From: Malacoraja senta
Taxonomy: Eukaryota
Assembly: GCA_038087875.1 (NCBI GenBank)
Contig: CM075994.1
Coordinates: 3,970,001-4,030,000, forward strand
Length of the DNA stretch: 60,000 bases
Direction of reading: 5' to 3'
Each line of letters begins with the position of its first letter. The first letter of the stretch is position 1. The notes under the pieces are model-generated. The model was not told the DNA's origin. It worked only from the letters and a program-made list of their open reading frames with translations, and ran no database searches. Both the position numbers and the translations under genes were made by a program. Positions 453-59,058 of this stretch are shown piece after piece.

Positions 453-479
453 AGCAAAAAATCGCCTTTCTAGAAGCAG
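453..479 (+). CDS. micro-exon 1 (27 nt, (E)QKIAFLEA)
   Basis: ctttcctttatcttaacag|AGCAAAAAATCGCCTTTCTAGAAGCAG|gtaaac. Confidence 0.85.

Positions 480-59058: not shown

Follow-up and report, generated by a model that had tools for sequence, protein, structure and literature searches.

An array of phase-1 micro-exons in Malacoraja senta and the long coiled-coil protein that it probably encodes

We analyzed a stretch of 60,000 nucleotides from Malacoraja senta, called the window below (GenBank assembly GCA_038087875.1, contig CM075994.1, forward strand, positions 3,970,001 to 4,030,000; G000:C18:3970001-4030000 in our numbering of the 1.94-Gb assembly), together with 270 kb of flanking sequence beyond it. 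Coordinates are counted from the first letter of the window, and negative or + values reach into the flanks. An earlier note on this DNA had proposed a hidden plus-strand gene made of at least 28 symmetric phase-1 micro-exons within 453..59058, whose joined 747 nt contain no stop and which open reading frame (ORF) lists do not recover. Our reconstruction of the window holds 24 strong phase-1 exons (690 nt) and five weak ones (798 nt in total). All 29 lie between an AG and a GT and can be joined without a stop at any junction; together they amount to 1.36% of the span, close to the ~1.3% estimated before. The ORF lists indeed miss them. The first and last exons (453-479, 27 nt; 59038-59058, 21 nt) lie where the note had placed them, the first in the context tttcctttatcttaacag/...GCAG/gtaaac, in which slashes mark the exon borders. 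The array is not confined to these positions; it continues into the flanks on either side, starting with a candidate ATG exon at ~-46.9 kb and reaching ~+191.5 kb (~238 kb), and the window holds about a quarter of it.

Exons were called with a single splice score, applied blind to reading frame to all lengths from 9 to 60 nt, whose weights are rough approximations of the vertebrate consensus and were not trained. Two sequence models were used in addition. Model R2 is a sequence-only covariance model of 52 27-nt exons with their flanks, all taken from outside the window, and model R1 was built on 36-nt exons, with a training set that included the window exons 6962..6997 and 20204..20239. The exons and exon candidates of the window are the following.

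453..479, plus strand: 27-nt phase-1 micro-exon QKIAFLEA (acceptor 8.2, donor 3.6; R2 18.1 bits)
651..674, plus strand: 24-nt phase-1 micro-exon QDNNMDT, polar (acceptor 5.4, donor 6.3; R2 only 7.0 bits, E 0.98)
1421..1447, plus strand: 27-nt phase-1 micro-exon, read as DRLDAIRA (R2 10.5 bits; in frame in the chain)
1567..1593, plus strand: 27-nt phase-1 micro-exon LQALREST (splice score; R2 12.3 bits)
3287..3313, plus strand: 27-nt phase-1 micro-exon QQLLAKEN (splice score; R2 20.6 bits, E 3.6e-5)
4019..4054, plus strand: 36-nt phase-1 micro-exon, 11 residues (R1 19.5 bits; pyrimidine tract weak)
6226..6252, plus strand: 27-nt phase-1 candidate NVLSMRTA, moderate (acceptor -1.5, donor 3.8; in frame)
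6962..6997, plus strand: 36-nt phase-1 micro-exon, 11 residues with a/d hydrophobic pattern (splice score; R1 35.0 bits as a training member; R2 8.6 bits)
7614..7640, plus strand: 27-nt phase-1 micro-exon AQLRDKVK (splice score; R2 20.1 bits; single copy in the genome)
8189..8215, plus strand: 27-nt phase-1 micro-exon LEECQRST (splice score; R2 7.7 bits; single copy)
9937..9963, plus strand: 27-nt phase-1 micro-exon VQEDYSTS, or 24 nt from 9940 (two possible acceptors; R2 8.8 bits)
12249..12266, plus strand: 18-nt candidate KRNAT, weak (splice score only; chance-like)
18916..18942, plus strand: 27-nt phase-1 micro-exon NKKNFDNL (splice score; R2 10.1 bits; unique DNA, ~22x depth)
19577..19603, plus strand: 27-nt phase-1 micro-exon AQLRKKGH (splice score; R2 12.6 bits)
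20204..20239, plus strand: 36-nt phase-1 micro-exon, 11 residues (splice score; R1 19.2 bits as a training member)
21201..21227, plus strand: 27-nt phase-1 micro-exon KMLKDKDS (splice score; R2 15.7 bits)
22808..22843, plus strand: 36-nt candidate, 11 residues, moderate (splice score; composition not coil-like)
23059..23085, plus strand: 27-nt phase-1 micro-exon VQLNEREA (splice score; R2 20.3 bits)
24396..24428, plus strand: 33-nt phase-1 micro-exon, 10 residues (splice score; R1 12.7 bits)
25513..25548, plus strand: 36-nt candidate, 11 residues, moderate (acceptor 5.0, donor 4.9; R2 8.6 bits)
29436..29462, plus strand: 27-nt phase-1 micro-exon ADGLRVEL (splice score)
30280..30303, plus strand: 24-nt phase-1 micro-exon DRIKEIR (splice score)
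32603..32629, plus strand: 27-nt phase-1 micro-exon LKNKVFKL (splice score; R2 8.1 bits)
40480..40518, plus strand: 39-nt Ser/Thr-rich candidate, 12 residues, weak (splice score only, donor 0)
41717..41728, plus strand: 12-nt candidate SST, weak (splice score only)
53681..53698, plus strand: 18-nt candidate SSSAR, weak (splice score only)
55141..55164, plus strand: 24-nt candidate KKLKELQ, ambiguous (splice score; inside an antisense SNORD36-like match)
58044..58070, plus strand: 27-nt phase-1 micro-exon LKKQKGCP (splice score; R2 partial match, 7.9 bits)
59038..59058, plus strand: 21-nt candidate TSTDEC, weak, the last exon of the earlier note (AG/GT criteria, splice score)

Exons 4019-4054 and 1421-1447 were missed by the crude score and recovered by the sequence models (R1, R2), so that the earlier figure of at least 28 exons is reasonable. 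The five weak exons (12249-12266, 40480-40518, 41717-41728, 53681-53698 and 59038-59058) are short and Ser/Thr-rich, and individually they are indistinguishable from chance AG..GT pairs. The Ser/Thr-rich spacers described before do have their AG and GT, but nothing separates them from the background.

The criteria with which the exons had originally been picked (a tract of at least 70% pyrimidines with AG and GT, 12-39 nt, a length divisible by 3) do not tell the array from chance. They gave 174 plus-strand pairs, of which 134 had phase 1 open, and 133 minus-strand pairs, of which 94 did; 30 block-wise dinucleotide shuffles gave 157 ± 14 pairs with 110 ± 11 open in phase 1 (maximum 131). What does discriminate is the spectrum of lengths. 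With the stricter setting of our score, the plus strand of the window contained 13 pairs of exactly 27 nt and between 0 and 5 at each other length from 9 to 60 nt; the minus strand contained one pair of 27 nt. With the looser setting, the counts at 27, 24 and 36 nt were 17, 4 and 4 on the plus strand versus 1, 1 and 4 on the minus strand, and 200 dinucleotide-preserving shuffles gave 1.78 ± 1.3 pairs of 27 nt (maximum 7), 1.55 of 24 nt and 1.6 of 36 nt. The 27-nt class is therefore far above chance in the window, and the 24- and 36-nt classes are not significant there and become so only when the flanks are included (260 kb).

Over 180 kb, the pairs of 27, 36 and 24 nt numbered 39, 23 and 12 on the plus strand versus 6, 4 and 3 on the minus strand, with 0 to 8 at the remaining lengths; pairs of 21 nt stayed at background level both in the window and over 180 kb. 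Over 260 kb and with no filter on frame, there were 81 pairs of 27 nt on the plus strand versus 7 on the minus strand. Phase 1 was open in 76 of the 81, compared with 49 and 42 in the other two phases. The same held for the 36-nt pairs (33 plus versus 7 minus), of which 32 were open in phase 1 versus 8 and 16 otherwise, and for the 24-nt pairs (18 plus versus 4 minus), of which 17 were open in phase 1. The neighbouring lengths 25, 26, 28 and 29 nt, pooled, showed 38 pairs on the plus strand and 48 on the minus strand. The proposed size clusters at 27, 24 and 36 nt hence hold, the first within the window and the other two over 260 kb, and so does the hidden plus-strand gene of symmetric phase-1 exons.

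The sequence models gave the same picture. Searched against the window at E ≤ 0.3, R2 returned 15 matches on the plus strand and none on the minus strand; 13 of the 15 fell on listed exons and the other two were partial matches to T-rich tracts. R1, searched over 320 kb, placed 44 of its 48 matches on the plus strand and recovered exons outside its training set, including one with a GC donor. This 36-nt coil exon at ~160401-160436 (IKRLEKLLSDA), found by R1 only, is followed by GC instead of GT (CAG/GCAAGA) and probably borders a GC-AG intron. Among the words of the introns, only those of the pyrimidine tract were enriched; for 35 of 110 exons, a TGC is present no more than 20 nt from the acceptor, a count taken without a control.

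The exons largely avoid repeated DNA. Within 260 kb, of which 28% is self-similar, 96 exons of 24, 27 or 36 nt were compared with the self-similar parts; just two overlap them, and both look like false positives. In this self-comparison, no exon-bearing segments aligned to each other at E < 1e-5. A genome-wide search with positions 6100-8300 of the window (2.2 kb, four exons) found the region to be single copy, except for a 166-bp short interspersed nuclear element (SINE)-like element at 7766-7931. This element occupies part of the intron that separates exons 7614-7640 and 8189-8215 and has thousands of copies at 94-96% identity (3595 first-pass candidates). Two public DNA sequencing runs covered the unique parts evenly, over exons and introns alike, at ~22x and ~2x, and the joints came from dispersed repeats only; the assembly is confirmed in its unique parts by this even depth.

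We then joined the exons into a core chain of 117 non-overlapping exons between -47 and +192 kb, filtered on their content of E, K, R, Q, L and D. The chain consists of 70 exons of 27 nt, 29 of 36 nt, 11 of 24 nt and 7 of other sizes, none of 21 nt. Its 3333 nt correspond to 1110 codons, and a stop that we attribute to a wrongly chosen exon arises at one junction. E accounts for 16% of the residues, K for 14%, L for 13%, R for 8%, D for 7%, Q for 6%, G for 1.8% and P for 0.6%. The codon split by each junction reads Glu or Asp because most exons end in G and begin with AA, AG, AT or AC (phase 1-1); of the 116 junction residues, 64 are E and 15 are D. In the 36-nt exons, hydrophobic residues occupy positions 1, 4, 8 and 11 in 86, 86, 83 and 55% of cases and the other positions in 10-45%, an a-d-a-d pattern, and the column entropy is lowest at the second codon position and highest at the third.

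Hydrophobicity along the chain is autocorrelated, with peaks at lags 7, 21 and 14. In genomic exon order, the best-register heptad score is 3.42, compared with 1.80 ± 0.12 for residue shuffles. When the order of the exons was permuted and the exons themselves were kept intact, the score was 2.50 ± 0.16 and none of 300 permutations reached 3.42; therefore, neighbouring exons are in mutual register. This result argues further for joining of the exons in genomic order. The chain thus shows heptad periodicity over hundreds of residues and is low in Pro and Gly, as composition and heptad score indicate for a long coiled-coil rod, and the amphipathic, E/K/R/L-rich helical coiled coil predicted by the earlier note is borne out in composition, a/d pattern and periodicity. 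Neither 9 nor 12 is divisible by 7, and loss of one exon of 9 or 12 residues would shift the heptad by 2 or 5 positions. Only blocks such as 36+27 nt (21 residues, three heptads) leave the register unchanged; from one 36-nt exon to the next, the distance is a whole number of heptads in 7 of 28 cases. Judged from these lengths, free combinatorial skipping appears doubtful.

At the upstream end of the array lies a candidate start exon of 117 nt (-46885..-46769). It is bounded by an acceptor and a phase-1 donor, and its ATG stands in good context and opens a frame without stops (MAAPSDQYIKTETEDGDEKK...). Its predicted peptide (MAAPSDQYIK...) is acidic and polar. A genome-wide search found exactly one other match, 694 kb upstream on the window's own contig and the same strand (G000:C18:3228895-3229020, plus strand; 59% identity, E 4e-6). 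In this paralogue, ATG and both splice sites are preserved, and so is the frame apart from a 3-nt indel that does not disrupt it; its peptide is likewise acidic and polar. Neither copy has a signal or membrane segment, and the start exon has no hydrophobic stretch, as judged from the sequence. The two regions are colinear at ~70% identity, introns included. The paralogue has a counterpart of the first 36-nt exon, and a single micro-exon is recognisable in its first 10 kb. Only the 5' end has been found in this second place. The paralogue suggests another gene of this type or else an incomplete copy, so that two or more such loci exist. A 42-residue in-frame extension of the start exon matched no protein at E ≤ 10 among longer proteins, which is weak evidence. 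A scan for phase-1 exons of 61-1500 nt returned nothing but the 117-nt start exon and junk.

Between ~-20 and +200 kb, the plus strand carries 9-17 pairs of 27, 36 or 24 nt per 20 kb, except for the 40-60 kb bin of the window, which has 2. From -60 to -20 kb, it carries 5 per 20 kb, and past +200 kb the number falls to 3-4; the minus strand has 0-3 throughout. Two bins inside the array, -40..-20 kb (5) and +40..+60 kb (2), are hence no denser than the sequence outside it. Introns have a median length of 1.2 kb and reach 22 kb. One 10-kb gap without exons is due to an insertion resembling a long terminal repeat (LTR) retrotransposon at ~146.8-151 kb, which has long open frames (aspartyl protease, RVT_1). 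Further upstream, from -79045 to -64380, there are more coil-type phase-1 exons of 36, 27 and 24 nt (IKKLKDDLEEK, LEHIKEELEKT, LDKLEIIRKDV), separated from the ATG exon by a gap of 17 kb.

We searched for other domains with Pfam in a total of 152 ORFs, a scan that exons encoding domains of fewer than ~55-62 residues would escape. The 40 longest plus-strand ORFs of -60..+200 kb and the 32 plus-strand ORFs of at least 62 residues listed at -60..-40 kb gave transposon domains only, and 80 ORFs of at least 55 residues from both strands of +190..+240 kb gave a single RVT_1 match. The families met were RVT_1, endonuclease, aspartyl protease, DDE_3, HTH of Tc1-type transposases, ALKBH8_N and zf-RVT. 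No Ig, transmembrane, B30.2 or lectin domain was found among the 152 ORFs, including the Ig-V/transmembrane, B30.2 and C-type lectin exons that the earlier note had suggested looking for in the flanks.

Taken together, these data make it probable, in our view, that the array is a real gene, kept by selection, which encodes a long coiled-coil rod inside the cell and whose micro-exon units were duplicated anciently and spread over ~240 kb by transposons. The locus would be one very large plus-strand gene, from ~-46.9 to ~+191.5 kb, with the window as its middle part. Its coding sequence would be cut almost wholly into phase 1-1 micro-exons of 27 nt (9 residues), 36 nt (12) and 24 nt (8). Joined in genomic order in a single transcript, these would yield a heptad-patterned rod of at least ~1100 residues, almost purely alpha-helical, which could dimerise through its a/d hydrophobic stripe. 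We infer an intracellular structural or scaffold role for such a protein because no signal peptide and no recognisable globular domain were found. Most likely, the array grew by ancient serial duplication of exon-plus-intron units, and the introns can no longer be aligned with one another and now contain many CR1-like long interspersed nuclear elements (LINEs) and SINEs.

We compared the array with known genes of many small exons. Non-fibrillar collagen genes such as COL7A1 and COL4 also have many small split-codon exons in multiples of 9 nt (27, 36, 45). Collagen exons, however, encode a Gly-X-Y triple helix, whereas the present array has 1.8% Gly and a heptad coiled coil, and includes 24-nt exons. 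Titin (PEVK) and nebulin contain ~100 tandemly duplicated in-frame exons of ~75-105 nt, which form one segment of a multidomain protein; the exons described here have a third of that size, and the search for further domains found none. The micro-exon genes (MEGs) of schistosomes encode small secreted proteins with a signal peptide, and triadin is membrane-bound, its lumenal tail being rich in Lys and Glu; in both, the symmetric micro-exons can be skipped in frame. The present gene shares with MEGs that most coding sequence lies in symmetric exons of at most 36 nt, but differs from MEGs and triadin in its start exon without signal or membrane segment, its Leu-rich heptad and its order-dependent register. 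In a limited literature search, which brought up only BG and triadin, we found no description of a coiled-coil gene with such an architecture.

The closest documented design is, by analogy, the tail of chicken BG proteins of the butyrophilin family, with which the earlier note had drawn a comparison. According to PMC5938342, BG tails are encoded by 21-nt exons with a few of 18 or 24 nt, 27-37 per gene, in which the first codon is split into one base plus two (phase 1), and which encode heptads and an inferred coiled coil. The likeness lies in the run of tiny symmetric phase-1 exons and in a/d positions that are fixed within the exon, and this split-codon heptad logic is the part of the comparison that stands. 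The 21-nt unit and the Ig-V and transmembrane exons do not carry over. A chicken BG exon of 21 nt equals one heptad, and the tail follows signal, Ig-V and transmembrane exons; in the present array the exons have 27, 36 or 24 nt (9, 12 or 8 residues, none a multiple of the heptad), there are at least 117 of them with a median intron of 1.2 kb, and they make up essentially the whole protein, with no Ig or transmembrane exon in the ORFs scanned.

Several observations weigh against a single intact gene for a coiled-coil rod. More than 100 consecutive exons of 24-36 nt across kb-scale introns are hard to reconcile with ordinary exon definition. The 117-exon chain has its one junction stop and ~121 register changes. 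Its composition is partly circular, since the exons were filtered on E/K/R/Q/L/D; as a check, the unfiltered pairs over 260 kb have a share of these residues of 62% in phase 1 versus 47% and 37% in the other phases, the same trend. The exon list was drawn up with a crude, untrained splice score, with some true exons missed and some false ones included, and the array is known here from genomic DNA of one species alone. Moreover, between 33 and 58 kb the window has only weak candidates, no terminal exon was identified beyond +191.5 kb, where the pattern stops, and the micro-exons at -79..-64 kb imply either a second gene or a longer first gene.

Some of these points would fit a locus of a different kind, namely several tandem micro-exon coiled-coil genes, or a locus that is in part degenerating and has lost expression over its full length. 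Besides the upstream exons beyond the 17-kb gap, the paralogous 5' end with its one recognisable micro-exon in 10 kb and two thinly populated parts of the array (window 33-58 kb and +142..+156 kb) point in this direction. We nevertheless regard it as a minor possibility, since frames are still open in 76 of 81 and 32 of 33 pairs, the chain contains a single junction stop and keeps its heptad continuity, and no internal start-type exon was seen, the ATG exon having just two copies genome-wide.

The array might also be the orthologue of an already named long coiled-coil protein, of the golgin, centrosome or synaptonemal type, in which the exon structure alone is unusual. The composition and the motif style E-L-E-x-L-K-x-x-L-Q-x-A-E look generic for long coiled coils. 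On the other side, the 42-residue start-exon query had no match among longer proteins, weak evidence as it is, and the limited literature search for such arrays brought up only BG and triadin. We know of no vertebrate coiled-coil gene with more than 100 micro-exons, and consider such an orthologue unlikely.

We think it very improbable that the array encodes the heptad-bearing stalk or tail of an immune-type membrane protein, BG/butyrophilin-like or otherwise, with Ig, transmembrane, B30.2 or lectin exons nearby; a stalk or tail of an immune-type protein had been raised as a possibility in the earlier note. BG tails are likewise coiled coils made from phase-1 micro-exons (PMC5938342), and this is a jawed-vertebrate genome with many major histocompatibility complex class I exons (88 matches). 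But the exons measure 27, 36 and 24 nt and not 21, there are at least 117 of them across kb-scale introns, the start exon and its paralogue are acidic and free of a signal or membrane segment, and in the 152 ORFs Pfam found transposon domains only, leaving room for domain exons below ~55-62 residues or in a 3' part beyond the exons found. Finally, a hand-picked subset of chance AG...GT pairs is practically out of the question: although picking 28 in-frame pairs is trivial when the plus strand offers 134 candidates, the minus strand 94 and the shuffles 110 ± 11, and although the five Ser/Thr-rich exons do not stand out from this background, the exact-length spike (17 versus 1.8 ± 1.3 at 27 nt), the 10:1 strand asymmetry over 260 kb, the open phase 1 in 76 of 81 pairs, the heptad continuity that depends on exon order and the recovery of the exons by R2, trained outside the window, refute a chance origin of the 27/36/24-nt class and leave it to individual weak exons.

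If the gene for a coiled-coil rod is expressed as predicted, faithful recognition of more than 100 successive micro-exons would be required, and the length of the rod could be tuned by skipping register-neutral blocks (36+27 nt). The exon-order result predicts constitutive splicing in order, or skips of 21- or 35-residue blocks, over free combinatorial skipping. Micro-exons shorter than ~30 nt usually occur singly and seldom, and need special enhancers to be spliced; such a gene would be a natural test bed for exon definition with more than 100 micro-exons across long, transposon-filled introns. A whole fibrous protein would be built from units of 9 and 12 residues that restore the heptad only jointly, unlike the BG tails with one heptad per exon. 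With a coding share of only ~1.4% of the span, the gene would escape annotation by ORFs altogether, and by many methods that rely on homology. Tentatively, with at least 117 and probably more than 130 consecutive phase-1 exons of 24-36 nt over ~240 kb or more, a whole coiled-coil rod of more than 1100 residues without a globular domain and a second locus that shares the start exon, it may perhaps be among the most micro-exon-dense vertebrate genes noticed.

The remainder of the window is rich in repeats. About 32% of it has coding homology to CR1-like LINEs (esterase, endonuclease, reverse transcriptase) on both strands, and it also contains microsatellites and tandem repeats. A nearly full-length CR1-like LINE with long open esterase/endonuclease/reverse-transcriptase frames lies on the minus strand at 33732-37634, in a large intron of the micro-exon gene, and the 78-bp tandem repeats at 37786-38165 are its 5' end. 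Two more LINE bodies are on the plus strand (43303-46757 and 47663-50419). Over 220 kb around the window, the observed/expected ratio of CpG is 0.75, which is high for a jawed vertebrate. Most of the CpG-rich blocks are at transposon 5' ends or tandem repeats, and CpG-island-like blocks were accordingly set aside as promoters.

The ambiguous exon candidate 55141..55164 lies within a SNORD36-like C/D-box match on the minus strand (55131-55204; 32.3 bits, gathering score 30), in which box C, box D and both guide stretches align. Three canonical SNORD36 copies are found together on another contig (C11) with 65-79 bits, and the match in the window may be a decayed retrocopy or chance. Between two LINE fragments, the minus strand at 46856-47503 carries a 215-residue ORF of IQ calmodulin-binding motifs (Pfam IQ, E 3.8e-12), which may resemble the IQ region of ASPM. 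This ORF belongs to a dispersed repeat with 581 first-pass candidates in the genome, of which 150 were scored and 151 matches reported. Among the 150 matches listed, all had E ≤ 1e-54 and 64-87% identity; they lie on many contigs, with open frames of up to 729 residues, and one copy of 411 residues is a single long IQ-repeat array.

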